A DNA stretch of 64,000 nucleotides from Escherichia coli (lineage in GTDB: Bacteria; Pseudomonadota; Gammaproteobacteria; Enterobacterales; Enterobacteriaceae). Every line of letters begins with the position of its first letter. Position 1 is the stretch's first letter. The stretch lies in the NCBI RefSeq assembly GCF_044647545.1, contig NZ_CP172818.1; one strand, given 5' to 3'. The position numbers and the translations under genes are program-made. A model generated the notes under the pieces. That model searched no databases, was not told where the DNA came from, and saw only the letters and a program-made list of their open reading frames with translations. Of this stretch, positions 6,262 through 58,737 are shown in pieces.

Positions 6262-7734
6262 GTGGATATTCAAAGCTTTGCTGTTTTATCAGGGAATATT
6301 TATATGATACGTAAGTCAGCTACAGGTGTTATTGTTGCGTTAGCCGTAATCTGGGGTGGTGGCACATGGTACACAGGTACGCAAATTCAGCCTGGTGTCG
6401 AAAAGTTTATTAAAGATTTTAACGATGCTAAAAAGAAAGGTGAACATGCCTACGATATGACGTTAAGTTATAAAAACTTTGACAAAGGCTTTTTTAATTC
6501 TCATTTTCAAATGCAAATAACATTTGATAACGGTGCACCCGATCTCAATATCAAGCCAGGCCAGAAAGTTGCATTTGATGTGGATGTTGAGCACGGTCCG
6601 TTGCCCATCACAATGTTAATGCGTGGTAATGTCATCCCCGCACTGGCAGCGGCAAAAGTGAACTTAGTGAATAATGAACTGACACAACCGCTATTTATCG
6701 CCGCAAAAAATAAATCGCCCGTGGAAGCGACATTGCGATTCGCGTTTGGTGGCTCATTCTCCACGACATTAGATGTTGCCCCTGCAAAATATGGAAAGTT
6801 TTCTTTTGGTGAGGGCCAGTTTACTTTTAATGGTGATGGTAGTTCATTGTCTAACCTGGATAGTGAAGGCAAAGTCGAAGATATTGTTCTGCAATTTTCA
6901 CCAATGAACAAAGTAACGGCGAAAAGTTTTACCTTTGATTCTCTGACACGATTAGAAGAAAAGAAATTTCCGGTTGGTGAAAGCGAGTCGAAATTTAATC
7001 AGGTTAATATTATCAACCAGGGGGAAGTCGTTGCCCAAATCGATGCTTTCGTTGCAAAAACCAGGCTGGATCGCGTTAAAGACAAAGATTATATCAATGT
7101 CAATCTGACCTACGAACTTGATAAGTTAATAAAAGGGAATCAGCAACTCGGTAGTGGTGAGTGGTCATTGATTGCTGAATCTATTGATCCATCAGCGGTG
7201 CGCCAATTTATCATCCAGTATAACATTGCGATGCAGAAGCAGCTTGCTGCACACCCTGAGTTAGCAAACGATGAAGTTGCTCTGCAAGAAGTGAATGCTG
7301 CATTGTTCAAAGAGTATTTACCGTTATTACAAAAAAGTGAGCCGACCATTAAACAACCGGTAAGATGGAAGAACGCACTCGGCGAACTAAATGCCAATCT
7401 GGATATCAGTATTGCCGACCCAGCCAAATCTTCATCATCCACAAACAAAGATATCAAATCGCTCAATTTTGATGTGAAGTTACCGCTTAATGTCGTCACA
7501 GAAACCGCAAAACAGCTTAATTTATCTGAAGGAATGGATGCGGAAAAAGCGCAAAAGCAGGCTGATAAACAAATCAGCGGGATGATGACATTAGGTCAGA
7601 TGTTTCAGTTAATCACGATTGACAACAATACCGCCTCGCTGCAGCTGCGTTATACACCGGGTAAAGTTGTTTTTAACGGACAGGAGATGAGCGAAGAAGA
7701 ATTTATGTCTCGTGCCGGACGTTTTGTTCATTAA
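6262..7734 (+). CDS. yihF: DUF945 family protein YihF (true start may be the internal Met at ~6304)
   Basis: 490 aa ORF with N-terminal hydrophobic segment; synteny dsbA-yihF-yihG. Confidence 0.8.
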   Translation: MDIQSFAVLSGNIYMIRKSATGVIVALAVIWGGGTWYTGTQIQPGVEKFIKDFNDAKKKGEHAYDMTLSYKNFDKGFFNSHFQMQITFDNGAPDLNIKPGQKVAFDVDVEHGPLPITMLMRGNVIPALAAAKVNLVNNELTQPLFIAAKNKSPVEATLRFAFGGSFSTTLDVAPAKYGKFSFGEGQFTFNGDGSSLSNLDSEGKVEDIVLQFSPMNKVTAKSFTFDSLTRLEEKKFPVGESESKFNQVNIINQGEVVAQIDAFVAKTRLDRVKDKDYINVNLTYELDKLIKGNQQLGSGEWSLIAESIDPSAVRQFIIQYNIAMQKQLAAHPELANDEVALQEVNAALFKEYLPLLQKSEPTIKQPVRWKNALGELNANLDISIADPAKSSSSTNKDIKSLNFDVKLPLNVVTETAKQLNLSEGMDAEKAQKQADKQISGMMTLGQMFQLITIDNNTASLQLRYTPGKVVFNGQEMSEEEFMSRAGRFVH

Positions 7735-8731: not shown

Positions 8732-9070
8732 GGCGCAGATTTTAGCAGAAAACGCCCCAAATAACGGATGATCCTTAAGGAGAAAAATAATTCATATCTA
8801 TCCACATTAGAAAAAATCCCATTATCTCAATTATTAGGGATGGCTTTATTTTTAACTACATGAAAAACAAAGACAAACATCATGCTGTAAAAAGCATGAT
8901 AATAAATTAAAAGTGATGTAAATAATTTATGCACAAAGTTATCCACATGACGATTTGCGAGCGATCCAGAAGATCTACAAAAGATTTTCACGAAAAGCGG
9001 TGAAAAACTCATGTTTTCATCCTGTCTGTGGCATCCTTTACCCATAATCTGATAAACAGGCACGGACATT

Positions 9071-11857
9071 ATGGTTCAGATCCCCCAAAATCCACTTATC
9101 CTTGTAGATGGTTCATCTTATCTTTATCGCGCATATCACGCGTTTCCCCCGCTGACTAACAGCGCAGGCGAGCCGACTGGTGCGATGTATGGTGTCCTCA
9201 ACATGCTGCGCAGTCTGATCATGCAATATAAACCGACGCATGCAGCGGTGGTCTTTGACGCCAAGGGAAAAACCTTTCGTGATGAACTGTTTGAACATTA
9301 CAAATCACATCGCCCGCCAATGCCGGACGATCTGCGAGCACAAATCGAACCTCTGCACGCGATGGTTAAAGCGATGGGACTGCCGCTGCTGGCGGTTTCT
9401 GGCGTAGAAGCGGACGACGTTATTGGTACTCTGGCGCGCGAAGCCGAAAAAGCCGGGCGTCCGGTGCTGATCAGCACTGGCGATAAAGATATGGCGCAGC
9501 TGGTGACACCAAATATCACGCTTATCAACACCATGACGAATACCATCCTCGGACCGGAAGAGGTGGTGAATAAGTACGGCGTGCCGCCAGAACTGATCAT
9601 CGATTTCCTGGCGCTGATGGGTGACTCCTCTGATAACATTCCTGGCGTACCGGGCGTCGGTGAAAAAACCGCGCAGGCATTGCTGCAAGGTCTTGGCGGA
9701 CTGGATACGCTGTATGCCGAGCCAGAAAAAATTGCTGGGTTGAGCTTCCGTGGCGCGAAAACAATGGCAGCGAAGCTCGAGCAAAACAAAGAAGTTGCTT
9801 ATCTCTCATACCAGCTGGCGACGATTAAAACCGACGTTGAACTGGAGCTGACCTGTGAACAACTGGAAGTGCAGCCACCGGCGGCGGAAGAGTTGTTAGG
9901 GCTGTTCAAAAAGTATGAGTTCAAACGCTGGACTGCTGATGTCGAAGCGGGCAAATGGCTACAGGCCAAAGGGGCGAAACCCGCAGCCAAGCCGCAGGAA
10001 ACCAGTGTTGCAGACGAAGCGCCAGAAGTGACGGCAACGGTGATTTCTTATGACAACTACGTCACCATCCTTGATGAAGAAACACTGAAAGAGTGGATTG
10101 CGAAGCTGGAAAAAGCGCCGGTATTTGCATTTGATACCGAAACCGACAGCCTTGATAACATCTCTGCTAACCTGGTCGGGCTTTCTTTTGCTATCGAGCC
10201 AGGCGTAGCGGCATATATTCCGGTTGCTCATGATTATCTTGATGCGCCCGATCAAATCTCTCGCGAGCGTGCACTCGAGTTGCTAAAACCGCTGCTGGAA
10301 GATGAAAAGGCGCTGAAGGTCGGGCAAAACCTGAAATACGATCGCGGTATTCTGGCGAACTACGGCATTGAACTACGTGGGATTGCGTTTGATACCATGC
10401 TGGAGTCCTACATTCTCAATAGCGTTGCCGGGCGTCACGATATGGACAGCCTCGCGGAACGTTGGTTGAAGCACAAAACCATCACTTTTGAAGAGATTGC
10501 GGGTAAAGGCAAAAATCAACTGACCTTTAACCAGATTGCCCTCGAAGAAGCCGGACGTTACGCCGCCGAAGATGCAGATGTCACCTTGCAGTTGCATCTG
10601 AAAATGTGGCCGGATCTGCAAAAACACAAAGGGCCGTTGAACGTCTTCGAGAATATCGAAATGCCGCTGGTGCCGGTGCTTTCACGCATTGAACGTAACG
10701 GTGTGAAGATCGATCCGAAAGTACTGCACAATCACTCTGAAGAGCTCACCTTGCGTCTGGCTGAGCTGGAAAAGAAAGCGCATGAAATTGCAGGTGAAGA
10801 ATTTAACCTTTCTTCCACCAAGCAGTTACAAACCATTCTGTTTGAAAAACAGGGCATTAAACCGCTGAAGAAAACGCCGGGTGGCGCGCCGTCAACGTCG
10901 GAAGAGGTACTGGAAGAACTGGCGCTGGACTATCCGTTGCCAAAAGTGATTCTGGAGTATCGTGGTCTGGCGAAGCTGAAATCGACCTACACCGACAAGC
11001 TGCCGCTGATGATCAACCCGAAAACCGGGCGTGTACATACCTCTTATCACCAGGCAGTAACCGCAACGGGACGTTTATCGTCAACCGATCCTAACCTGCA
11101 AAACATTCCGGTGCGTAATGAAGAAGGTCGTCGTATCCGCCAGGCGTTTATTGCGCCAGAGGATTATGTGATTGTCTCGGCGGACTACTCGCAGATTGAA
11201 CTGCGCATTATGGCGCATCTCTCGCGTGACAAAGGCTTGCTGACCGCATTCGCGGAAGGAAAAGATATCCACCGGGCTACGGCGGCAGAAGTGTTTGGTT
11301 TGCCACTGGAAACCGTAACCAGCGAGCAACGCCGTAGCGCGAAAGCGATCAACTTTGGTCTGATTTATGGCATGAGTGCTTTCGGCCTGGCGCGGCAATT
11401 GAACATTCCACGTAAAGAAGCGCAGAAGTACATGGACCTTTACTTCGAACGCTACCCTGGCGTGCTGGAGTATATGGAACGCACCCGTGCTCAGGCGAAA
11501 GAGCAGGGCTACGTTGAAACGCTGGACGGACGCCGTCTGTATCTGCCGGATATCAAATCCAGCAATGGTGCTCGTCGTGCAGCGGCTGAACGTGCAGCCA
11601 TTAACGCGCCAATGCAGGGAACCGCCGCCGACATTATCAAACGGGCGATGATTGCCGTTGATGCGTGGCTACAGGCTGAGCAACCGCGTGTACGTATGAT
11701 CATGCAGGTACACGATGAACTGGTATTTGAAGTTCATAAAGATGATGTCGATGCCGTCGCGAAGCAGATTCATCAACTGATGGAAAACTGTACCCGTCTG
11801 GATGTGCCGTTGCTGGTGGAAGTGGGGAGTGGCGAAAACTGGGATCAGGCGCACTAA
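9071..11857 (+). CDS. polA: DNA polymerase I
   Basis: 928 aa ORF; 5'-3' exonuclease, 3'-5' exonuclease and polymerase regions ([23 protein letters not shown]) recognisable. Confidence 0.97.
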
Positions 11858-12004
11858 GATTCGCCTGAACATGCCCTTTTTTCGTAAGTAAGCAACATAA
11901 GCTGTCACGTTTTGTGATGGCTATTAGAAATTCCTATGCAACAACTGAAAAAAAATTACAAAAAATGCTTTCTGAACTGAACAAAAAAGAGTAAAGTTAG
12001 TCGC

Positions 12005-12113
12005 GTAGGGTACAGAGGTAAGATGTTCTATCTTTCAGACCTTTTACTTCACGTAATCGGATTTGGCTGAATATTTTAGCCGCCCCAGTCAGTAATGACT
12101 GGGGCGTTTTTTA
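12005..12113 (+). ncRNA. spf: Spot 42 small regulatory RNA
   Basis: Matches GTAGGGTACAGAGGTAAGATGTTCTATCTTTCAGACC...CCCCAGTCAGTAATGACTGGGGCGTTTTTTA with intrinsic terminator; located between polA and engB. Confidence 0.9.
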
Positions 12114-12138
12114 TTGGGCGAAAGAAAAGATCCGTAAT

Positions 12139-12218
12139 GCCTGATGCGCCATGTTTATCAGGCCAACGGTAGAAGTGTAATCTATTGAATTTACTGGCCG
12201 GATACGCCACATCCGGCA
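12139..12218. repeat. REP (repetitive extragenic palindromic) element(s)
   Basis: GCCTGATGCGCC...TATCAGGCC and GCCGGATACGCCACATCCGGCA palindromic units. Confidence 0.6.
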
Positions 12219-12238
12219 CAAGCATTAAGGCAAGAAAA

Positions 12239-12871
12239 TTATTCGCCGTCCTGCGTTTCTTCTACAGGCTGCATCTCGCTAAACCAGGTATCCAGTTTCT
12301 GCCGCAGCTTGTCCACGCCTTGTTTCTTCAGTGAAGAGAAGGTTTCAACCTGCACATCACCGTTAAACGCCAGCACCGCTTCACGCACCATATTCAATTG
12401 CGCTTTACGTGCGCCGCTTGCCAGTTTGTCCGCTTTGGTCAGCAGCACCAGCACGGCGATATTGCTGTCTACCGCCCACTCAATCATCTGCTGATCCAAA
12501 TCTTTCAGCGGATGGCGAATATCCATTAGCACCACCAGACCTTGCAGGCTCTGACGTTTTTCGAGGTACTCGCCGAGCGCGCGCTGCCATTTGCGCTTCA
12601 TCTCTTCCGGGACTTCCGCATAACCGTACCCAGGCAAGTCAACCAGACGCTTGCCGTCAGCCACTTCAAACAGGTTGATAAGCTGGGTGCGCCCTGGGGT
12701 TTTTGAGGTCCGCGCCAGGCTTTTCTGGTTAGTCAGCGTGTTCAGCGCGCTGGATTTACCTGCGTTGGAACGGCCTGCAAAAGCCACTTCAATTCCGGTA
12801 TCGGAAGGTAGGTGGCGAATATCAGGCGCACTCATCACAAAATGCGTCTGTTGATAATTCAAATTAGTCAA
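12239..12871 (-). CDS. engB: Ribosome biogenesis GTP-binding protein EngB (YihA)
   Basis: 210 aa ORF with G1 motif GRSNAGKSS and G4 motif TKADK. Confidence 0.92.
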
Positions 12872-13141
12872 AGCGGTCGTCTCCGTCAGTCAAAGCTTTG
12901 CGGCGATTATACCTGAACCATAATAAAAGGCGGATTTTTCGGCGTGAGCGTTGTAAGTAAAAGCCATACGCTTTGTGAGACATTGCCGATAGTCTTTATG
13001 CGAAATAGCAGAGAAAATTCTGCGATGCATGTCAAATAAGCTATATAAATCAGTTAATTGCTTTTATATAAAACTCTGAAAATGTGCAAATACTGATGGC
13101 GGTTGATTGTTTGTTTAAAGCAAAGGCGTAAAGTAGCACCC

Positions 13142-13385
13142 ATAGAGCGAGGACGCTAACAGGAACAATGACTCAGGATGAGGGTCAGGAGCGCCAGGAG
13201 GCGAAGACAGAGGATTGTCAGGAAGACAAACGTCCGGAGACGTAATTAAACGGAAATGGAATCAACACGGATTGTTCCGGCTAATGGAAAAACAGGGTGT
13301 GTTGGCGGCCTGCAAGGATTGTAAGACCCGTTAAGGGTTATGAGTCAGGAAAAAAGGCGACAGAGTAATCTGTCGCCTTTTTTCT
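13142..13385 (+). ncRNA. csrC: CsrC small RNA (CsrA-sequestering)
   Basis: ATAGAGCGAGGACGCTAACAGGAACAATGACTCAGGATGAGGGTCAGGAGCGCCAGGAGG... with multiple GGA motifs and terminal hairpin GGCGACAGAGTAATCTGTCGCCTTTTTT; between engB and yihI. Confidence 0.85.
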
Positions 13386-13452
13386 TTGCTTGCTTTCTGT
13401 TAGATTCCGCCGCAAATCTATACTGAATAAAACGGCTAAAAGACGAACCATT

Positions 13453-13962
13453 ATGAAACCATCATCTTCAAACTCACGCAGCAAAGGTCATGCAAAAGCG
13501 CGTCGAAAAACACGCGAGGAGCTGGATCAGGAAGCTCGTGACCGTAAGCGTCAGAAAAAACGTCGTGGTCATGCGCCGGGCAGCCGCGCAGCGGGCGGTA
13601 ACACCTCGTCAGGCAGCAAAGGCCAGAACGCACCAAAAGATCCACGTATTGGCAGTAAAACCCCTATTCCATTGGGCGTGACTGAAAAAGTCACCAAACA
13701 GCACAAACCGAAGAGTGAGAAACCTATGCTTTCACCGCAGGCGGAGTTGGAATTACTGGAAACGGATGAGCGTCTGGATGCGCTGCTGGAACGTCTGGAA
13801 GCAGGCGAAACCCTGAGCGCCGAAGAGCAATCCTGGGTGGATGCTAAACTGGATCGTATTGATGAGTTGATGCAGAAACTCGGCCTCTCTTATGACGATG
13901 ACGAAGAAGAGGAAGAAGACGAGAAGCAAGAAGACATGATGCGTCTGCTGCGGGGCAACTAA
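13453..13962 (+). CDS. yihI: Der GTPase-activating protein YihI
   Basis: 169 aa from [23 protein letters not shown]..., basic N-terminus and acidic C-terminus; inside ORF 13390..13962. Confidence 0.85.
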
Positions 13963-14150
13963 CGGATTGCCGCCGTGGGCCTTCCCGTTCTGCTGATAAC
14001 CCTTCCGGTTATATGTTATCTGGTGTGGTTATTCGTTAAACTACAGCGGTTGTCGCGGCGACAAAAGTGGCTGCGCAACCGGCTGATGACCCGAAACGGG
14101 CATCCGCCGGTACGCCGTAGCCGCCAGAGACGCCATCGGAAGGAGTGAGC

Positions 14151-15524
14151 ATGTCTGTACAGCAAATCGACTGGGATCTGGCCCTGATCCAGAAATATAA
14201 CTATTCCGGGCCACGATACACCTCGTACCCGACCGCGCTGGAGTTTTCAGAAGACTTCGGCGAACAGGCGTTTTTACAAGCCGTGGCGCGCTATCCTGAG
14301 CGTCCATTATCTCTCTACGTACATATTCCGTTCTGCCATAAGCTTTGTTACTTCTGCGGTTGCAATAAGATAGTTACTCGCCAGCAGCACAAGGCCGATC
14401 AGTATCTGGACGCGCTGGAGCAAGAAATCGTCCATCGTGCACCGCTTTTTGCCGGGCGCAAGGTGAGCCAGCTGCACTGGGGCGGTGGTACGCCGACGTA
14501 TCTGAACAAAGCGCAAATCAGCCGTCTGATGAAGCTGCTGCGCGAAAACTTCCAGTTCAATGCCGATGCGGAGATTTCGATCGAAGTCGATCCGCGCGAA
14601 ATCGAACTGGATGTACTCGATCATTTACGCGCCGAGGGCTTTAATCGCCTGAGCATGGGCGTGCAGGACTTCAACAAAGAAGTGCAACGTCTGGTTAACC
14701 GCGAGCAGGATGAAGAGTTCATCTTTGCACTGCTTAACCATGCGCGTGAGATTGGCTTTACCTCCACCAACATCGACCTGATTTACGGTCTGCCGAAACA
14801 GACGCCGGAAAGTTTTGCCTTTACCCTGAAACGTGTGGCGGAGCTGAACCCCGATCGTCTGAGCGTCTTTAACTACGCGCATTTGCCGACCATTTTTGCT
14901 GCTCAGCGCAAAATCAAAGATGCTGACCTGCCGAGTCCGCAGCAAAAACTCGATATCCTGCAGGAAACCATTGCCTTCCTGACGCAATCGGGCTATCAGT
15001 TTATCGGGATGGATCACTTTGCCCGCCCGGATGACGAGCTGGCGGTGGCCCAGCGTGAAGGCGTGCTGCATCGTAACTTCCAGGGCTACACCACTCAGGG
15101 CGATACCGATCTGCTGGGGATGGGCGTTTCCGCCATCAGTATGATTGGCGACTGCTACGCGCAGAACCAGAAAGAGTTGAAGCACTACTATCAGCAAGTG
15201 GATGAACAAGGCAACGCGCTGTGGCGTGGTATTGCGCTAACGCGTGATGACTGTATTCGCCGCGATGTGATTAAGTCGCTCATCTGCAACTTCCGTCTGG
15301 ATTACGCTCCCATTGAGCAACAGTGGGATTTGCACTTCGCTGATTACTTTGCGGAAGATCTCAAGCTGCTCGCCCCGTTAGCAAAAGATGGGCTGGTGGA
15401 TGTGGATGAGAAGGGGATTCAGGTGACGGCGAAAGGTCGCTTGCTGATCCGCAACATTTGCATGTGCTTTGATACCTATCTGCGCCAGAAAGCGCGGATG
15501 CAGCAGTTCTCACGGGTGATTTAA
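14151..15524 (+). CDS. hemN: Oxygen-independent coproporphyrinogen III dehydrogenase HemN (radical SAM)
   Basis: 457 aa from MSVQQIDWDLALIQKYNYSGPRYTSYPTA, radical-SAM cysteine cluster CHKLCYFCGC. Confidence 0.93.
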   Translation: MSVQQIDWDLALIQKYNYSGPRYTSYPTALEFSEDFGEQAFLQAVARYPERPLSLYVHIPFCHKLCYFCGCNKIVTRQQHKADQYLDALEQEIVHRAPLFAGRKVSQLHWGGGTPTYLNKAQISRLMKLLRENFQFNADAEISIEVDPREIELDVLDHLRAEGFNRLSMGVQDFNKEVQRLVNREQDEEFIFALLNHAREIGFTSTNIDLIYGLPKQTPESFAFTLKRVAELNPDRLSVFNYAHLPTIFAAQRKIKDADLPSPQQKLDILQETIAFLTQSGYQFIGMDHFARPDDELAVAQREGVLHRNFQGYTTQGDTDLLGMGVSAISMIGDCYAQNQKELKHYYQQVDEQGNALWRGIALTRDDCIRRDVIKSLICNFRLDYAPIEQQWDLHFADYFAEDLKLLAPLAKDGLVDVDEKGIQVTAKGRLLIRNICMCFDTYLRQKARMQQFSRVI

Positions 15525-15591
15525 ATAGTGAATGGCGCTTCGTTTACAAAGTAGAAAACGAAAGCGCCATCAATGTGCTGAGAACAAGATT

Positions 15592-15744
15592 GCCTGATGC
15601 GCTGGGCAACAAAACCTGTAGAAATTATTGCTTTTGTAGGCCAGATAAGGCGTTTACGCCGCATCTGGCATCTGAGCATGATGCCTGATGCGACGCTGGT
15701 CGCGTCTTATCAGGCCTACGACTTTCTCCGCATCCGGCATAAAC
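15592..15744. repeat. REP/BIME cluster in the hemN-glnG intergenic region
   Basis: Repeated GCCTGATGCG...CTTATCAGGCCTAC and GGCCAGATAAGGCGTTTACGCCGCATC units. Confidence 0.6.
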
Positions 15745-15752
15745 AACGAGCT

Positions 15753-15863
15753 TCAGCTAAACAGCCCAATCATCGCGGCACACAGCACGGCAGCAACGGC
15801 AGTTTGCGGTGTGTGGCTGTCAACTGCGCCACTCGATACCAGATTAATTATTGATTCCAGCAT
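15753..15863 (-). CDS. yshB: Small membrane protein YshB (36 aa)
   Basis: Minus-strand ORF MLESIINLVSSGAVDSHTPQTAVAAVLCAAMIGLFS between hemN and glnG; a small protein of this name is annotated at this position in K-12 (from memory). Confidence 0.45.
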   Translation of the reverse strand: MLESIINLVSSGAVDSHTPQTAVAAVLCAAMIGLFS

Positions 15864-15974
15864 AATGACTCTCCCCGTTTTCCGGGCAAGATCATACTGA
15901 ACTTATCGGAACAGTAAAGCGCAAAATACCAGCAATTTGCGCTCAATAATCAATCTTTACACACAAGCCGTGAA

Positions 15975-17384
15975 TCACTCCATTCCCAGCTCTTTTAACT
16001 TCCGCGTCAGAGTGTTACGCCCCCAGCCGAGTAGCCGCGCCGCTTCCTGTTTATGCCCCTGCGTATGTCGCAACGCGGTCGTCAGTAACGTCCGCTCCAA
16101 CTCTGGTTGCGCTTCAGACAGCAAGTTTTGATGACCGGAACGTAGCGCCCGATCTGCCCACTGTGCTAACAGCGTTGCCCAACTGTCCGGCTGCATTTGT
16201 GAAGTGCTTTCCGGTACGGTTGATTCAAACAGTTCGCCAGGCAAATCCTGAATCAACACTTCCTGTCCGGCAGCCATTACCGTTAGCCAGCGGCAGGTGT
16301 TTTCCAGCTGGCGCACGTTGCCTGGCCACGCCAGACGCGTCAGAGCGGCTTCAGTTTCCGGATGCAGCAACTTTGCTTCTACGCCCAGCTCGCGAGCAGC
16401 AACTTGTAAAAAATGGTGTGCCAGACGGGGAATATCTTCCCGACGCTCACGCAGCGGCGGCAGATGAACACGGATGACGTTCAGGCGGTGGAACAGATCC
16501 TCACGGAACTTGCCTTCCTGCACCCGCTGTTCGAGATTCTGGTGAGTGGCAGCGATAATCCGCACATCCACTTTCACCGGTGCATAGCCGCCAACGCGAT
16601 AAAACTGACCGTCTGCCAGCACGCGCAGCAAACGCGTCTGCACATCCAGCGGCATATCGCCAATTTCATCGAGAAATAACGTGCCGCCATCGGCTTGTTC
16701 AAAACGCCCCTGACGAATGGTATTCGCGCCGGTAAACGCGCCTTTCTCGTGACCAAACAGTTCTGATTCGATCAAATCCTTCGGGATAGCCGCCATATTG
16801 AGCGCGATAAACGGCGCTTTGGCTCGCGGGCTGTGGCGATGCAGGGCATGAGCGACCAGTTCTTTACCAGTGCCGGATTCGCCGTTGATCAGCACGCTAA
16901 TGGAAGAACGCGAAAGTCGACCGATAATACGGAACACGTCCTGCATGGCTGGCGCTTCGCCGATGATATCGGTCGTTGGGCCGTTAAGCTGAACATTACG
17001 CGGCTGCTGCTGTTCCTGATAATGACTGATGGCGCGCTCAACCAGCGCCACGGCTTCGTCGATATCAAACGGTTTGGGCAGATAATCAAACGCCCCTTGT
17101 TGATAGGCGCTGACGGCAGCATCCAGATCGGAATGTGCGGTCATAATGATGACCGGAAGCATTGGATGGCGCTGTTTAATCTGCTTGAGCAGCGCCAGCC
17201 CGTCCATTCCCGGCATACGGATATCTGAAAGCAGTACATCCGGCGTTTTGCTCGCCAACGCCTCCAGTACTTCCGCGCCGTTCTCAAATGTCGTACAGGT
17301 TAAACCCGCTCCAGCGAGCGCACGTTCAAGCACCCAACGGATGGAACTATCGTCATCGACTACCCAGACTATCCCTCGTTGCAT
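15975..17384 (-). CDS. glnG: Nitrogen regulation response regulator NtrC (sigma-54 activator)
   Basis: 469 aa from [23 protein letters not shown]; receiver domain, AAA+ sigma-54 interaction domain ([14 protein letters not shown]), C-terminal HTH. Confidence 0.96.
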
Positions 17385-20220: not shown

Positions 20221-20365
20221 TTTGGATAACCCTTTTTATGCTCCGTGAAAGCGATCACAAAGGGACTCTGCAATACTTGTTTGCGGAGGATGTTTGTGAT
20301 CCTGTTTTGTAGTGCGATTAATCCGTGTACAATAACGCGCTATTTCTAATGCCTGAGGCAAAGTT

Positions 20366-46051: not shown

Positions 46052-49000
46052 TTACACCTTTTCCACATTCACAAGGAAGGACTTAAACTCCGGCGTCTGC
46101 GTGTTCGCATCACCCACGAATGGCGTTAACGTATTGGCAATAAAGCCTTTTTTCGCAACGCCTTCATAGCCCCAGTGAATCGGAATACCGATGGTATCGA
46201 TATCTTTGCCGTTCGCTTTCAGCGTGCGAATACGTTTGGTCACCACCGCTTTGGCTTTGATATAGCCACGGTTGGAGGAGACTTTCACAGTATCGCCCTG
46301 GGCAATGCCAAGTTTATTCGCCAGCGACTCCCCGATTTCCACAAACTGCTCTGGTTGCAAAATCGCATTCAACAGCGCGTGTTTGGTCCAGTAGTGGAAG
46401 TGCTCGGTCAGACGATAGGTGGTTCCGACATACGGGAACTTATCGGCTTTACCCAATGCTTCGGCGTCGTCTTTAAAGATACGCGCAGCCGGGTTCGAGA
46501 TAACGTTTGGATGCAGCGGGTTAGTTCCCAGCGGCGTTTCAAACGGCTCGTAGTGTTCCGGGAACGGACCTTCCGCCATCTTATCGAGGGCAAACAGACG
46601 TCCCATGCCTTCCTGCTGCATGATAAACGGCCCTACGCCGCTGCCCGGAGGCGCTGCGCTGTAGTCCGGAATATCCCAGCCGGTCCACTTAGTGCCGTCC
46701 CATTTCAGCAACTGACGCTTCGGATCCCATGGGTTACCCTGCGGATCTGCGGAGGCGCGGTTATACAGAATGCGGCGGTTAAGCGGCCATGCCCATGCCC
46801 AGCCCAGCGTGTTACCGAGGCCAGACGGATCGGCGTTATCACGACGCGCCATCTGGTTACCTTCTGGCGTCCAGCTACCGGCGAAAATCCAGCAGCCACA
46901 GGAGGTCGTACCGTCATCGCGCAGTTGGGCGAACGAGCTAAGTTGTTGGCCTTTCTTGACGATAACCGCACCGGTTGCCGGATCGGTAATATCGGCCAGC
47001 GCCTTACCGTTGCTCTCCATCGCCACTTCTTCCGACTTCGGCTCATGCGGAATGGCGTAGTTCCAGGTCATATTCAGCACCTGGTCCGGGTTTGCGCCAC
47101 CCTGTTCGGCATACATCTTGCGCAAGCGCAGGAAGATACCGGAGAGGATCTCGCCATCAGTCAGCGCAATCCCTGGGGCGTCCGCACCTTTCCAGTGCCA
47201 CTGTAACCAGCGACCGGAGTTAACGATTGAACCGTTCTCTTCTGCGAAGCAAGTCGATGGCAGACGGAACACTTCGGTCTGGATCTTCGACGAGTCAACT
47301 TCGTTCAGCTCACCGTGGTTCTGCCAGAAGTTAGAGGTTTCAGTGTTCAGCGGGTCGATGGTGACGAGGAACTTCAGTTTCGACAGACAGCCGATCACTT
47401 TGTTTTTGTTCGGGAATGAGGCAACAGGGTTAAAGCCCTGGCAGATATAGCCATTGACCTTGCCCTCTTTCATCATCTCGAAGTATTGCAGGACGTCGTA
47501 GCCTTTATCCCACTTCGGCAACCAGTCAAAGCCCCAGTTATTTTCCGCCGTCGCTTTATCACCAAAGAAGGCCTTCATCATGGAGACGAAGAATTTCGGG
47601 TAATTGCCCCAGTAGTTAACCTGGCCTTCCAGCAGTGGTTTCGGCGTGTTGGCGGTAAGGTAAGTTTGCAGATCGGTCTGCTTCTCGCTTGGCAACGTCA
47701 TGTAACCTGGCAGACTCTGCGACAGCAGCCCCAGGTCGGTCAGCCCCTGAATATTGGAGTGACCGCGCAGGGCGTTAACGCCGCCGCCAGCCATCCCCAT
47801 ATTGCCGAGCAGCAGCTGGATCATCGCCATCGTACGAATGTTTTGCGCACCAATGGAGTGTTGCGTCCAGCCGAGGGCGTAGAGGAACGACGCTGTTTTA
47901 TCGTGAGCACTGGTTTCGGCGATGTATTCGCAGACTTTCAGGAACGCGTCTTTTGGCGTACCGCAGATGTTTTCAACCACATCTGGCGTATAACGGGAAA
48001 CGTGCTGTTTCAGCAAGTTCCACACGCAACGTGGATGTTGCAGCGTGGTATCGCGTTTGGCGAAGCCGTTTTCGTCCAGTTCGTAAGTCCAGGAGGATTT
48101 ATCGTACTTGCGTTTTTCCGCGTCGTAGCCGGTGAACAGGCCATCTTCAAAGCCGTAATCCTCACGCACGATCAGGCTGGCGTTGGTATAGGCTTCGGTG
48201 TATTCGCGGTTGAATTTTTCATTGTTCAGCAGGTACAGCAATACGCCTGACAGGAAAGCAATGTCAGTCCCGGAACGAATAGGGGCATAGTAGTCAGCCA
48301 CCGCCGCCGTACGTGTAAAGCGAGGATCGATCACAATCAGCTTCGCGCCGTTGTGAATTTTGGCTTCCATCGCCCAGCGGAACCCGACCGGGTGAGCTTC
48401 AGCGGCGTTACCGCCCATCACCACGACGAGGTTGGCATTCTTGATGTCGACCCAGTGGTTGGTCATCGCACCGCGACCAAATGTTGGAGCAAGACTTGCT
48501 ACCGTTGGTCCGTGTCAGACACGCGCCTGGTTGTCGACCGCGAGCATACCCAGCGCGCGGGAGAATTTTTGCGTTAAATAGCCGGTTTCGTTACTCGACG
48601 CGGAAGCACACAGCATCCCGGTGGAGAGCCAGCGGTTAACAGTCACGCCTTCGGCGTTTTGCGCAATGTAGTTCGCATCGCGGTCTTCTTTCATCAGTTT
48701 GGCGATGCGATCAAACGCCTCTTCCCAACTGATTTGTTGCCATTTATCAGAACCTGGCGCACGGTATTCCGGAAACTTCAGGCGGCTTTCGGAGTGGATG
48801 AAATCCACCAGGCCAGCGCCTTTCGGACAAAGTGCTCCGCGGTTGACCGGGTGATCCGGGTCACCTTCGATATGGAAGATAGATGCTTTGGCGTTTTTTG
48901 CTCCGTCACCGAGGCTGTACATCAACAGCCCACAGCCTACGGAACAATAGGTGCAGGTATTACGGGTTTCGCGGGTGCGCAGCAGTTTATACTGCCGGGT

Positions 49001-54211: not shown

Positions 54212-55652
54212 GCTCCTGTTGCGCAGCTTTGGCTTTGCGGCGTAACCATAATCCTTTCAGGACGATAATGAATGAAATGTTCAGCGCGAGGCCAATCGCC
54301 AGCACCAGGTAAAACGAACCTACCGGCGACATCAGGCCGATCAGCGGGTCAAAGATACCCAAACCAGGTGCCAGTCGTTTGATTCCGAAAGCGATCACCA
54401 GCACGCCGGTAATGCCGCCCGCCAGCGTATTGGCGGTGATCATTGGCAGTGGTGCCGCCAGAGCGTAAGGAATAGCCGGTTCGGTCGCGACCGTGGCACC
54501 GACCACAATGGCGCTACTGGCGGCTTCTTTTTCCTGTTGAGTAAACAGCTTGGGCGCAATGAACGTCGCAAGACCCGCCGCGACAGGCGGCATCAGCGCG
54601 ACAACGCCGACGATGGCGTACCAGTCGTAAATGTGTTTTTCCAGCAGTGAGAAGCAGAAGAACCAGGCGGTTTTATTGATAGGACCGCCCATATCGAACG
54701 CCAGCATCGCACCGACCAAAAACGCTGCCGCAAACTTCATTGACGGAGGAATGGTGTTCAGGAAGTGCAGCAACCCGCCCATGAGGTCGGACATCACCGG
54801 TCCGATAACGTAGTAAGTCAGTACGCCGAAAACCAGCAGAGTGACGAACGGGATCAGCATGGAACCGAGCAGCGGTTGTAATGCTTTGCCAAGGCGCACT
54901 TTACGGAACCAGAAGACGAAATAGCCAATCGCCAGCCCCAGCACCACCGCACCGAGGAAGCCCGCGCCAGACTGGGTGCCGAGCAGGGCTTTGTCATTCG
55001 CCAGATAGCAAACCAGAAACGCCGGAGCGAAAGCCGGTTTATCGGCAATCGACGAGGCAATATAAGCGCCCATGATGGGGATCATAAAGGTGAAGCCGAG
55101 ATAACCGATGGATTCCACCACCCAGGTAAACGACGGCGCGCCTTTCGACATATCGGTATACGGCAAACCGAACTGCACCAGCATGTTGGCAAGCGCCACC
55201 AGGATACCGCCACCGATGACAAACGGCAGCGCCGCAGAAACACCCGCCATCAGATGGCTCATTACGCTGCCACTTTGCACTTCCTGTTTGCCGAGCTTCA
55301 CGCCGCTATCTGCGGCAAAAAGCTGCGAGTTTGTCGGTAATTCACTGAAAATCTGGTCGATATTTTTCAGCGCCTGGGAGATGGCAATCTCATAAACCTT
55401 TTTCCCGGCAAATCGCGCGCGATCATCACCGCTCAGGCCACGCCCGGTAGCGAGAATCACGTAATCGGCAGCGGCAATCTCTTCGCTGGATAAGCGGTTT
55501 TCGATGCCGCTTGATCCTTGAGTTTCAACTTTAATGGTATGACCGAGAGAACGGGCTTTCTGTTCCAGGGCTTCCGCCACCATGTAGGTGTGAGCGATCC
55601 CGGCGGGGCAGTTGGTGATCGCGACAATACGTAAGGATGACTCCATCGCCAC
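54195..55652 (-). CDS. frvB: Fructose-like PTS EIIBC component FrvB
   Basis: 485 aa ORF, N-terminal EIIB Cys motif (ITNCPAGIAHTYM) and polytopic EIIC domain. Confidence 0.9.
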   Translation of the reverse strand: MAMESSLRIVAITNCPAGIAHTYMVAEALEQKARSLGHTIKVETQGSSGIENRLSSEEIAAADYVILATGRGLSGDDRARFAGKKVYEIAISQALKNIDQIFSELPTNSQLFAADSGVKLGKQEVQSGSVMSHLMAGVSAALPFVIGGGILVALANMLVQFGLPYTDMSKGAPSFTWVVESIGYLGFTFMIPIMGAYIASSIADKPAFAPAFLVCYLANDKALLGTQSGAGFLGAVVLGLAIGYFVFWFRKVRLGKALQPLLGSMLIPFVTLLVFGVLTYYVIGPVMSDLMGGLLHFLNTIPPSMKFAAAFLVGAMLAFDMGGPINKTAWFFCFSLLEKHIYDWYAIVGVVALMPPVAAGLATFIAPKLFTQQEKEAASSAIVVGATVATEPAIPYALAAPLPMITANTLAGGITGVLVIAFGIKRLAPGLGIFDPLIGLMSPVGSFYLVLAIGLALNISFIIVLKGLWLRRKAKAAQQELVHEH

Positions 55653-55656
55653 TTCC

Positions 55657-56103
55657 TTATGAGCTGAGGGTTTGATTTAACAAAGCAAGTACCTGGTCGG
55701 CGTCGCCCTGTCGCAGTTGGTTGATAAAATCCTGGTGGATAATTTTGCGGCACAGCGTGCCGATGATTTTGACCTGTTCCTCTTCGCCACTTTGTGGCAC
55801 GCCGAGGCAGATCCAGCAATTGACGTCTTCGCCATCGCTGGCCTGCCAGTCAATGGCCTGCGTTTTGCGGGCGAATAACACGAACGGTTGTTTAACGCAG
55901 GCGCTTTTACCGTGCGGCACGGCGACACCGGAACCAAATCCCGTGGAGTGCATTTTTTCGCGCAGCAGCAGGGTTTGCAGGAACTGGTGTGAGTCGGTGA
56001 TAAAACCGTTTTGTAACGCCATTGTCGCCAACTGCTTCAGAACGGAATAAGCGCCATTGCCCTGAATATTCAGGTCAATACAGCTTGCAGTAAGTGCTGC
56101 CAT
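55657..56103 (-). CDS. frvA: Fructose-like PTS EIIA component FrvA
   Basis: 148 aa from MAALTASCIDLNIQ..; EIIA(Fru/Mtl) family with conserved His region (GVAVPHGKS). Confidence 0.9.
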   Translation of the reverse strand: MAALTASCIDLNIQGNGAYSVLKQLATMALQNGFITDSHQFLQTLLLREKMHSTGFGSGVAVPHGKSACVKQPFVLFARKTQAIDWQASDGEDVNCWICLGVPQSGEEEQVKIIGTLCRKIIHQDFINQLRQGDADQVLALLNQTLSS

Positions 56104-56539
56104 TATTGGATTCCATGAAAAAATATAATAGTTAATTGTAACGGCGGGGCGGTTTTGTGATGAGCGCGGATATGTCGTGAAGTCGTGACAATATAAGGCA
56201 GAGTGAAGGATAAATTTTGCGGTGTAAGGCACATATTGATGGGTAAAATAAAGCAGTGAATAAAAAATCATTATTTAATGATGTTGTGAATGTTTAACTG
56301 CCGCACATGTTTTGCAGCAAGGTTATTTATATTTGTGGCTTATGAGTCAGCGTGAATTATATCTAATATTTTTAACGATATTTGGTTAAAAACGGCACTA
56401 TTGTTTATTCCTCAGTTCCAGAAATCAGCGGATTTACTCATATTATACGATACTATCCATCGCCTCTAAGTTGATTAAAAATTCGAAATCACACCTTATA
56501 TTTCTCTATAACTATTCCTTTTGAAACATCTCTTTTTTT

Positions 56540-57125
56540 GGGGAAGAAAAAAAAAAAAAACATTTGTTTGGGGAGGAGAGGGAAAAAAAAAAATTAAGGG
56601 AACAACGAGATTGTGGAAGAAGCCGGAGAGAAAAAAGCGGCAAAAAAAGAGAGAGAGGGGGAAAAAAAGCAGACAAAAAAAGGGAGACGGAAAAAGAGCG
56701 CGAGAAGGGGAAAAAGAGGAGAAGCGGGGAGCGAGAAAAAAAAACCCACCTCTCTTCTTCTCTGGGAAAAAAAAGCGGGAAAATAAAGGGAAAAGAAGGG
56801 GGGAGAAGAGTGGAGAAGACCACAAAAGAGAGGAGTGTTGTTGGAAAGAGAAGAAGTCGCGGGGTCCCCCGCAGGGGGGAGGGGGAGAAAAAGGGGTGTT
56901 TTCGCAAGAAAAAGAAGAAGGAAAGAAGGGGGGAGTGCCGGAGGAAGTGTGAGTAGAAAAACGAATGAGGGGGGAGCTATATGAAAGAAGGGGCGGGGGC
57001 AGGGGGTCATTCGGAAAAAAAAAAGAATGTTGAAAAAAAAGAAAGAAAAGGAAAAATTAAAGAAGAAAAGAGGAGGGGAGGGAGAAAGAAAATTCGGGAT
57101 GCGGGGCAGGAGGGTGCGCGGTGCT
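56540..57125. other. Anomalous ~590 bp polypurine (A+G) low-complexity tract
   Basis: Directly visible: GGGGAAGAAAAAAAAAAAAAA..GGGGAGGAGAGGGAAAAAAAAAAA..; plus strand almost devoid of pyrimidine runs; overlapping ORFs in several frames encode only low-complexity K/E/R/G or P/S/F/L peptides. Confidence 0.9.
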
Positions 57126-57152
57126 GGATATTTTCCGGCACTTCGCAACTCA

Positions 57153-57467
57153 TTAAGGCAGGTAAAACACTTCTTGCAGCTCGCTACTGACTGGGCTGTT
57201 ATCCGGGTTAGCTGGCATAACGTCGGTCATATATTTCCACCAACGTTGGCAAACATCAGTACTGGCTACCGCATTCCACCGTTCTTCAGATTCAATCTCT
57301 ACCGTGGCAAACAGCAGATTACGCGCTTTGTCGAGGTAAATGGCGTAGTTATGTGCACCGTGAGATTTCAACACTGCTTCCAGTTCCGGCCAGATTGGAT
57401 TATGCCGACGCTGATACTCTTCGTGGGCGTCGGGGTTAACCTGCATGACAAAGGCTTTGCGGATCAT
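57153..57467 (-). CDS. rhaM: L-rhamnose mutarotase
   Basis: 104 aa [41 protein letters not shown].. Confidence 0.93.
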
Positions 57468-57476
57468 GTTTGCTCC

Positions 57477-58301
57477 TTACAGCGCCAGCGCACTGGCGAG
57501 TGGTGTAACACCGAAACGCTGGCCGAGCGCTATCAGCTCTTCACGACTGATGGTCTGTTTCATGCCGCCCATCGAATAAACCTTCACTAATACTTGTGCT
57601 GATTTTTCTGCGGTGTCGATTAAACCGAATGTTTCATCCAGTGTCGGACCGCTGCCGAAGACGCCGTGGAAGGGCCACAACACCAGCGAATGTTTTTGCA
57701 TTTCCTGTGCGGTCGCCTGGCCGATTTCGTCCGTGCCGGGCACCATCCACGGCAAAATGCCGACGCCATCCGGGAACACTACCAGACACTCGGTGCTGCC
57801 TTCCCAAAGCTGGCGAGTGAAGAGCGCGGTGTCGTTTTCCAGTACGTAGGTAAGGGCGATCAGGTTGGTGGCGTGGCAGTGCATGATCACCCGATCTTTA
57901 CCGTTGGTGGCTTTAATGCGCTCGCAGTGGGAGAGAAAGTGAGCCGGAAGTTCAGAGGTTGGAACGGCTTCGTTGGTTAGCCCCCAGAGAATATGGTAGC
58001 CCGCGCCGTCGCTGTCGACTTTTACGACGCCTAAGTTAGCCGCAGGATCAAGCTGGACGTTACGAAAGAATTTGCCGGAGCCGGTGACAATAAACGGTGT
58101 ATTTGCCAGTAAAGGCATGGGCTGGATGAGCGGGATATAGCGCGGTTGTGCATGAAAGTTGCCGTGATAAGGCGCGATATCGGCGTCATCCAGGCGCAGC
58201 GTCAGGTTACCACCATTGCGCTCGTCCCAGCCTTTCAGCCAGGCGTCGGTGGTGGCTTTGATCATTCCCTGGACAAACCAGGACTGGGTAATGTTTTGCA
58301 T
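57477..58301 (-). CDS. rhaD: Rhamnulose-1-phosphate aldolase
   Basis: 274 aa from [37 protein letters not shown] inside ORF 57477..58394. Confidence 0.95.
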
Positions 58302-58319: not shown

Positions 58320-58737
58320 TTGGACGTCCGTGCCTGTTGCCGGATGTACGATCTGTAGGCCGGATAAGGCACTCGTGCCGCATCCGGCAATCAATGCCTG
58401 ATGCGACGCTGTCGCGTCTTATCAGCCTACAACTATTGCCGACCCTAGCCGGATATGGCGCTCGTGCCGCATCCGGCAATCAATGCCTGATGCGACGCTG
58501 TCGCGTCTTATCAGGCCTACAACTATTGCCGACCTGTAGGCCGGATAAGGCACTTGTGCCGCATCCGGCAACAATGCTGATGCGACGCGTCGCGTCTTAT
58601 CAGGCCTACAACTATTGCCGACCCGTAGCCGATATGCGCTCGTGCCGCATCCCAATCAATGCCGATGCGACGCTGCGCGCTATCAGGCCACAACAGCCGA
58701 CCCGAGGCCGGAAAGGCACGGCCGCATCCGGCAGTGT
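58320..58737. repeat. Tandem REP/BIME array (~4.5 units of ~85 bp) in the rhaD-rhaA intergenic region
   Basis: Repeated GCCGGATAAGGC.CTCGTGCCGCATCCGGCAATCAATGCCTGATGCGACGCTGTCGCGTCTTATCAGGCCTACAACTATTGCCGACC; distal copies progressively lose bases. Confidence 0.8.

Follow-up and report, generated by a model that had tools for sequence, protein, structure and literature searches.

The small RNA genes spf (Spot 42) and csrC on either side of yihA/engB in a segment of the Escherichia coli chromosome

The DNA analysed here, a stretch of 64,000 nucleotides which we call the window, is a segment of the Escherichia coli chromosome in which polA, spf, yihA (also known as engB), csrC, yihI and hemN follow one another in this order. 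The assignment of polA, yihA, yihI and hemN as neighbours is backed by NCBIfam equivalog models. The gene for DNA polymerase I, polA, occupies positions 9071-11857 on the plus strand (its open reading frame matches NF004397 with 1253 bits, and it is named polA both in K-12 and in a RefSeq record that is 100% identical), and the gene for the ribosome-biogenesis GTPase, yihA/engB, occupies 12239-12871 on the minus strand, with the start codon of its 210-codon frame at 12871 (TIGR03598, GTPase_YsxC, the YihA/YsxC equivalog, 252 bits; K-12 b3865). Further along, yihI, encoding the Der GTPase-activating protein, is found at 13453-13962 on the plus strand (NF003560, YihI, 169 bits), the start of K-12 b3866 mapping to 13453. 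The two RNA genes, spf (12005-12115) and csrC (13142-13387), are both on the plus strand, one on each side of yihA. Many complete RefSeq E. coli chromosomes carry the 1601 nt from 11860 to 13460 with 100% identity, and this region is found in 5425 of 5426 complete E. coli genomes. In the curated record of K-12 MG1655 the same order is given as polA, the ncRNA spf (b3864) with the nested coding sequence spfP (b4837), yihA, the ncRNA csrC (b4457), yihI and hemN. It is thus virtually certain that two independent and experimentally characterised E. coli small RNA genes, both read from the plus strand, flank the minus-strand yihA/engB.

Rfam covariance models were scanned permissively over positions 9000-17000 and, at gathering thresholds, over the whole window, and both RNAs were matched in each scan; in the permissive one, CsrC and Spot_42 were the two dominant plus-strand matches. 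Spot_42 (RF00021) matched 11995-12113 with 122.8 bits (gathering score 80, E=4.5e-25), over model positions 1-115 of 115, and CsrC (RF00084) matched 13142-13395 with 277.9 bits (gathering score 61, E=1.5e-88), over model positions 1-255 of 255. These scores, far over the cut-offs, and the near-identity to the annotated K-12 genes bear out the original prediction, which had recognised Spot 42 and CsrC by their sequence, proposed an Rfam scan as the check, placed spf downstream of polA and csrC between engB and yihI (the flanking genes are confirmed above, and the positions were also compared with 120 related loci, see below) and assigned a terminator to each RNA (a consensus scan places them at 12081-12106 and 13347-13386). 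It had delimited the pair as 12005-13385; the first of these positions coincides exactly with the annotated +1 of K-12 spf, and the second falls 2 nt before 13387, to which the annotated csrC 3' end of K-12 maps. By every feature testable here, spf and csrC are members of their families, csrC having been judged by the definition of CsrA-sequestering sRNAs from Kulkarni et al. 2006 (PMC1488887). Since both are effectively K-12 type sequences, they are already known, everything reported here on the two genes has been published, and the identification, correct as it is, is an ordinary one.

The spf gene is identical to K-12 b3864 in 111 of 111 nt, with the same +1, terminator and SpfP reading frame and with no difference within the gene, and it shares the K-12 position, beginning 147 nt after the polA stop codon, with yihA following downstream. 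One promoter-proximal substitution, 40 nt upstream of the +1, separates the two sequences (position 11965 is A here and G in K-12). The RNA has been described as 109 nt long, which corresponds to 12005-12113, whereas the K-12 annotation gives 111 nt and extends to 12115. Its minimum free energy fold opens with a long 5' hairpin, continues with a short one in the middle and ends in the terminator. The latter, an intrinsic terminator at 12081-12113 on the plus strand, has an 11-bp GC-rich stem, a loop and a U-tract, the consensus scan reporting the hairpin at 12081-12106 followed by TTTTTT. Between spf and engB, reading the sequence by eye reveals REP-like palindromes with 7-bp arms; a repeat search of the same interval with a minimum length of 8 found none, because the arms are 7 bp long.

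Spot 42 carries a reading frame of its own. The original prediction had stated that no ORF marks either RNA, which holds for CsrC (whose longest internal ORF has 39 codons) but not for Spot 42, and this is the sole refinement that the prediction needs: Spot 42 is not ORF-free. The 15-codon frame, spfP (12023-12070, plus strand; translation MFYLSDLLLHVIGFG, followed by the stop codon), corresponds to K-12 b4837, annotated as the dual-function small protein SpfP. It is intact, begins with ATG, has a GAGG Shine-Dalgarno sequence ahead of it and is retained in 106 of 111 aligned Spot 42 orthologues, and both the translation of SpfP and its binding to CRP have been demonstrated (Aoyama et al. 2022, PMC8916003). 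Taken together, these features could be read as meaning that the spf transcript is only the mRNA of a 15-residue peptide, the label of small RNA being superfluous. We consider this reading extremely improbable, given that the same study genetically separated the two activities of Spot 42 and confirmed the base-pairing repression of nanC, srlA and glpF fusions, and that the conservation of Spot 42 reaches the non-coding 3' hairpins with compensatory changes, an outcome that a constraint on the peptide alone would not yield.

The conservation of the fold was quantified on 111 aligned sequences (110 distinct), in which 99.4% of the cells of the Spot 42 structure are paired, whereas slid controls reach 38-51%. 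Compensatory changes occur in nine pairs, with 90 compensatory cells, and none of 500 shuffles scored as high; in the terminator (helix 4), 8 of 10 pairs have such changes. Positions 7-37 were fixed by the search pattern from which the orthologues were collected (the first 37 nt being fixed or nearly so), so that conservation there is partly by construction, and the informative variation is located 3' of these positions. The covariation supports the Spot 42 structure.

Concerning the mode of action of Spot 42, the picture drawn for the characterised RNA (PMC8916003) would be expected to apply here. In this picture, Spot 42 would be transcribed when glucose is present, because cAMP-CRP is known from the literature to repress spf; the RNA would then pair with mRNAs of genes through which non-preferred carbon sources are taken up and used (galK, srlA, fucI, nanC and others), blocking their expression. 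Serving also as the mRNA for the 15-residue SpfP, it would give rise to a peptide that binds CRP and damps CRP-dependent activation, and both activities, base pairing and SpfP, would reinforce catabolite repression. Since the gene is identical to that of the characterised RNA, Hfq-dependent pairing of the present Spot 42 with galK, srlA, nanC and other mRNAs is likewise to be expected (PMC8916003). More generally, expression, protein binding and regulatory effects of both RNAs in the present strain would be expected to follow what the literature describes for identical or near-identical sequences.

The csrC gene (13142-13387, plus strand; 246 nt as in the K-12 annotation) is identical to K-12 b4457 in 245 of 246 nt and shares with it the +1, the terminator, the UvrY inverted repeat and the yihA and yihI flanks. 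K-12 csrC belongs to the clan CL00106 of CsrA sponges of the CsrB/RsmB type, which also holds CsrB (RF00018) and the Yersinia CsrC (Ysr186, RF02767), both acting by the same mechanism (sequestration of CsrA on GGA repeats), the Yersinia RNA even occupying the same engB-yihI interval. By sequence, however, CsrB and Ysr186 are different families, and the RNA in the window scores as CsrC proper, overlapping lower-scoring matches from the same clan having been dropped by the Rfam scan in its favour. The strong intrinsic terminator of csrC (13347-13386, plus strand) was found by the terminator scan as an extended A-tract/U-tract hairpin of 18 pairs followed by a T-rich tail; it is palindromic enough to match on both strands, and a partial Rfam match on the minus strand covers only this hairpin.

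The single substitution relative to K-12 csrC is at 13285 (CsrC position 144), T here and A in K-12, and changes AAGGA into AUGGA, so that the GGA core stays and one canonical AGGA/ARGGA motif is lost. Of 5422 complete E. coli genomes, 2515 (about 46%) carry an identical stretch of 61 nt around this position, and the T is therefore a common natural allele. Such a polymorphism might alter the CsrA capacity per CsrC molecule and amount to a two-allele difference in the Csr set-point between E. coli lineages. We regard this as very unlikely, because the substitution leaves the GGA core intact, the family structure has the motif partly base-paired and the position is free to vary (A, G, C or T) from genus to genus.

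The abundance of GGA motifs, which the original prediction had described as multiple GGA-containing repeats, stands above the background of the window. In its 246 nt, CsrC contains 14 GGA, nine of them as AGGA, against a window-wide mean of 3.28 GGA per 246 nt (99th percentile 11) and of 0.66 AGGA (maximum elsewhere 4). When AGGA is counted, no part of the 64 kb other than CsrC is an outlier, and the AGGA density is specific to CsrC. Measured against the G/A-rich composition of CsrC itself, the GGA excess is moderate: dinucleotide shuffles contain 8.9 ± 2.0 GGA, against the 14 of the real sequence, and 53 of 5000 reach 14. Once placed on the Rfam consensus structure, 11 of these 14 triplets have no paired nucleotide at all; hairpin loops hold six of them and single-stranded linkers the other five.

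GGA density alone was rejected as a detector of CsrC, since it also flags 56464-56940, a purine-rich, artefact-like stretch and no second sponge RNA. In this part of the window, positions 56527-57115 form 589 nt of low-complexity DNA (about 81% purine over the 571 nt counted, 56530-57100), which stand in place of 1436 bp containing an entire carbohydrate-porin gene in otherwise near-identical genomes. Over the approximately 290 nt that precede it, small deletions become progressively denser. This version of 56527-57115 is covered by no complete E. coli genome, and it looks like a local assembly or sequencing artefact.

The CsrC structure was evaluated on an alignment of 28 sequences, namely that of the window and 27 others from Escherichia, Citrobacter, Enterobacter, Klebsiella, Kosakonia, Pluralibacter, Shimwellia, Cedecea and other genera. 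Pairs were counted on the Rfam consensus structure in place of an RNAalifold prediction from a MAFFT alignment, which recovered the hairpins only partly, added an implausible long-range helix and was set aside. In the family structure, 84.1% of the cells are paired, against 38-48% when the partners are slid by 1-3 columns, and the terminator (helix 11) reaches 98.2%. Seventeen pairs have compensatory changes, and none of 500 shuffles reaches the observed covariation score; the covariation therefore supports the structure of CsrC, as it does that of Spot 42.

This result also bears on how the interval has been annotated elsewhere. RefSeq records that are identical to the window omit the ncRNA features for spf and csrC; in two of them (NZ_CP033850.1 and NZ_AP018488.1), a pseudo-CDS ("hypothetical protein; frameshifted; internal stop") has been placed over csrC, at the equivalent of about 13168-13334. 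Taken at face value, this annotation would make the interval a decayed protein-coding gene with no RNA gene in it, a proposal to which we give next to no credence. The longest ORF in this intergenic region between yihA and yihI that falls within csrC has 39 codons and starts with TTG, and the pseudo-CDS itself needs both a frameshift and an internal stop; the CsrC covariance model matches from end to end with 277.9 bits, the helices covary over 28 genera and strains and the K-12 curators annotate the interval as the ncRNA csrC. The missing real ORF, the full-length match and the covariation together effectively refute a protein-coding interval. The same records agree with the remark of the original prediction that the two genes are easy to miss, and the present identification matters only as correct annotation, no new biology following from it. 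Once spf and csrC are recognised, no "hypothetical protein" is wrongly called and no intergenic region is wrongly taken as "empty", at two genes whose products are global regulators (Spot 42 in catabolite repression, CsrC in the Csr circuit of carbon storage, biofilm and virulence).

Upstream of csrC, we found an 18-nt inverted repeat for UvrY of the BarA-UvrY system (12974-12991, plus strand; TGTGAGACATTGCCGATA), which is an exact match to the published E. coli csrC repeat and is centred at -159.5 from the csrC +1. A TGTAAG half-repeat (12952-12957, plus strand) lies 16 bp upstream of it, and both elements, with the same spacing, have been described for E. coli csrC (Zere et al. 2015, PMC4682653). 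A consensus promoter scan of 11800-13500 found no canonical sigma-70 promoter and located neither the spf nor the csrC promoter; the hexamer TAAAGT (11992-11997, plus strand), read from the sequence 7 nt upstream of the spf +1, is by its position a tentative candidate for the -10 element of spf. The CRP operator consensus (TGTGA-N6-TCACA, with up to 2 mismatches) returned CRP-like half-sites with 2 mismatches each upstream of spf (11913-11928) and of csrC (13021-13036). Such matches are at or below chance in the window as a whole (20 found, 25.9 expected), for which reason the two sites are not counted as evidence.

The features of csrC are consistent with the mechanism described for CsrC in the literature (PMC7652899, PMC4682653, PMC1488887). 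CsrC would be a protein sponge, whose GGA motifs, most of which lie in hairpin loops or in single-stranded linkers, would bind CsrA dimers and titrate CsrA off its mRNA targets, relieving these from CsrA control. Phosphorylated UvrY (BarA-UvrY), acting through the inverted repeat some 160 nt upstream, would activate csrC transcription, and turnover of the RNA would depend on CsrD, RNase E and PNPase. The identity of 245 of 246 nt to the characterised RNA suggests that the present CsrC, too, would bind multiple CsrA dimers, antagonise CsrA and decay via CsrD and RNase E (PMC7652899).

In order to place the locus among its relatives, one-genome-per-species contigs were searched with an exact 31-nt Spot 42 core, which returned 120 loci covering Enterobacterales, Vibrionales, Aeromonadales and a few Alteromonadales. 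Among the 104 loci with enough flank, 90 have the end of polA within 1 kb upstream of spf, and in 84 of 87 loci engB follows spf within 1.5 kb, encoded on the opposite strand. At Rfam gathering thresholds, CsrC is present between engB and yihI in Citrobacter, Enterobacter, Klebsiella, Kosakonia and Shimwellia, and the Yersinia CsrC family (Ysr186/RF02767, from the same clan) is found in the corresponding interval. Matches to the Csr clan in this interval in Edwardsiella, Serratia, Hafnia, Erwinia and Vibrio (CsrB-type), with E-values of 1e-9 to 1e-14, are indicative only, because their scores are below the gathering cut-offs. It has been reported that csrC homologues are always near yihA and yihI (Kulkarni et al. 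2006, PMC1488887), and our comparison therefore confirms the conservation of this neighbourhood without being new.

Throughout the Enterobacteriaceae, spf and csrC stay about 1.1 kb apart. In Salmonella, furthermore, CRP-cAMP represses both Spot 42 and CsrC, and CsrC levels rise when Spot 42 is over-expressed (El Mouali et al. 2020, PMC7591399). These observations invite the idea that Spot 42 and CsrC act as a single functional unit, their genes being adjacent because the RNAs base-pair directly. We find this very improbable on three counts. In the published work, it was a transcriptional csrC-lacZ fusion that responded to Spot 42, and this speaks for an indirect route. The engB-yihI gap of Pectobacterium, Dickeya and Brenneria measures 224-347 nt with 1-3 GGA, too short to hold csrC, and spf nevertheless keeps its position. 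Finally, the predicted Spot 42-CsrC duplex has an energy of -54.6 kcal/mol, against a mean of -55.6 for shuffled CsrC, with 56% of the shuffles being as good, and direct pairing was consequently rejected as the cause of the adjacency. Given a duplex no better than with shuffled sequences and a published effect exerted on a transcriptional fusion, Spot 42 more likely influences CsrC by an indirect route.

The interval between engB and yihI, which holds csrC in the window (13142-13387, plus strand), is rich in GGA motifs (at least 11 per 246 nt) in 49 of the 60 loci with both flanks present, among those collected with the exact 31-nt Spot 42 core (L numbers below). In Edwardsiella, Serratia, Hafnia, Erwinia and a Vibrio, Rfam places RNAs of the Csr clan (the CsrB/RsmB-type sponges of CsrA) in this interval (L057, 3502-3751; L110, 7097-7403; L114, 7398-7623; L074, 6171-6386, minus strand; L013, 3955-4289, minus strand). 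The E-values of these matches range from 1e-9 to 1e-14 and the scores lie below the Rfam gathering cut-offs, so that routine annotation would miss these RNAs. In the soft-rot genera Pectobacterium, Dickeya and Brenneria (L071, L097, L108 and L083), the gap between engB and yihI is just 224-347 nt long and holds one to three GGA motifs; csrC is therefore absent. The gap of Enterobacter sp. Ag1 and Cedecea neteri (L016 and L100) measures 449 nt, with five GGA motifs, and since the resemblance to CsrC is limited there to the 3' ~110 nt, the sequence suggests a truncated csrC.

In the window itself, csrC differs from the K-12 gene solely at 13285, where K-12 has A and the window has T. This substitution changes AAGGA into AUGGA in the RNA, with the loss of one AGGA motif and retention of the GGA core, and of 5422 E. 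coli genomes, 2515 carry the surrounding 61-nt stretch unchanged. In the RefSeq annotation of two genomes identical to the window (NZ_CP033850.1 and NZ_AP018488.1), neither spf nor csrC has an ncRNA feature; a pseudo-CDS, "hypothetical protein (frameshifted; internal stop)", is placed within csrC instead (~13168-13334), a call that we rejected as spurious.

Upstream of spf (12005-12115, plus strand), K-12 and the window differ at 11965, in the promoter region and 40 nt before +1, with G in the former and A in the latter. The spacer from the Spot 42 terminator to the engB 3' end carries two REP-like palindromes, each with arms of 7 bp, that were read from the sequence (GCCTGAT...ATCAGGC at 12139-12163 and GCCGGAT...ATCCGGC at 12197-12217); a repeat search with a minimum length of 8 reported neither of them. 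Concerning other genera, the locus of Bowmanella yangjiangensis (L080, 12919-13038, minus strand) has the exact 5' core of Spot 42 with a terminator almost directly after it, lacks the middle hairpin and the linker, and gives no Rfam Spot_42 match at the gathering threshold; it may encode a shorter form of Spot 42. In Pectobacterium (L071), an Rfam "Fwd6 3'UTR" element (6712-6827) adjoins the Spot 42 5' end, within the polA-spf spacer.

Farther along the window, a low-complexity stretch of 589 nt (56527-57115), with a purine share of ~81% over 56530-57100, lies between frvA and rhaM, in place of 1436 bp that comprise, in otherwise near-identical E. coli genomes, an entire carbohydrate-porin gene. 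Its degraded flank begins at ~56240, with small deletions that become increasingly dense as the stretch is approached, and a 2-nt insertion is found beyond it, near 57142. None of 5426 complete E. coli genomes covers at least 80% of the region 55600-57600, which spans the stretch. The stretch seems to be an artefact of the assembly or the sequencing rather than biology.

Other Rfam matches in the window include a 23S rRNA, cut off at its 5' end, followed by a 5S rRNA (1-2948). The naRNA4 family (RF02564), which is based on REP-type repeats, matches downstream of hemN (15639-15716) and three times in tandem at 58358-58428, 58447-58517 and 58539-58606. A selenocysteine-insertion element, SECIS_3, lies on the minus strand (48462-48520), and a match to the ES222 sRNA (RF02755; 20177-20284, plus strand, 130.6 bits) contains a CRP-like site with one mismatch at 20244-20259.
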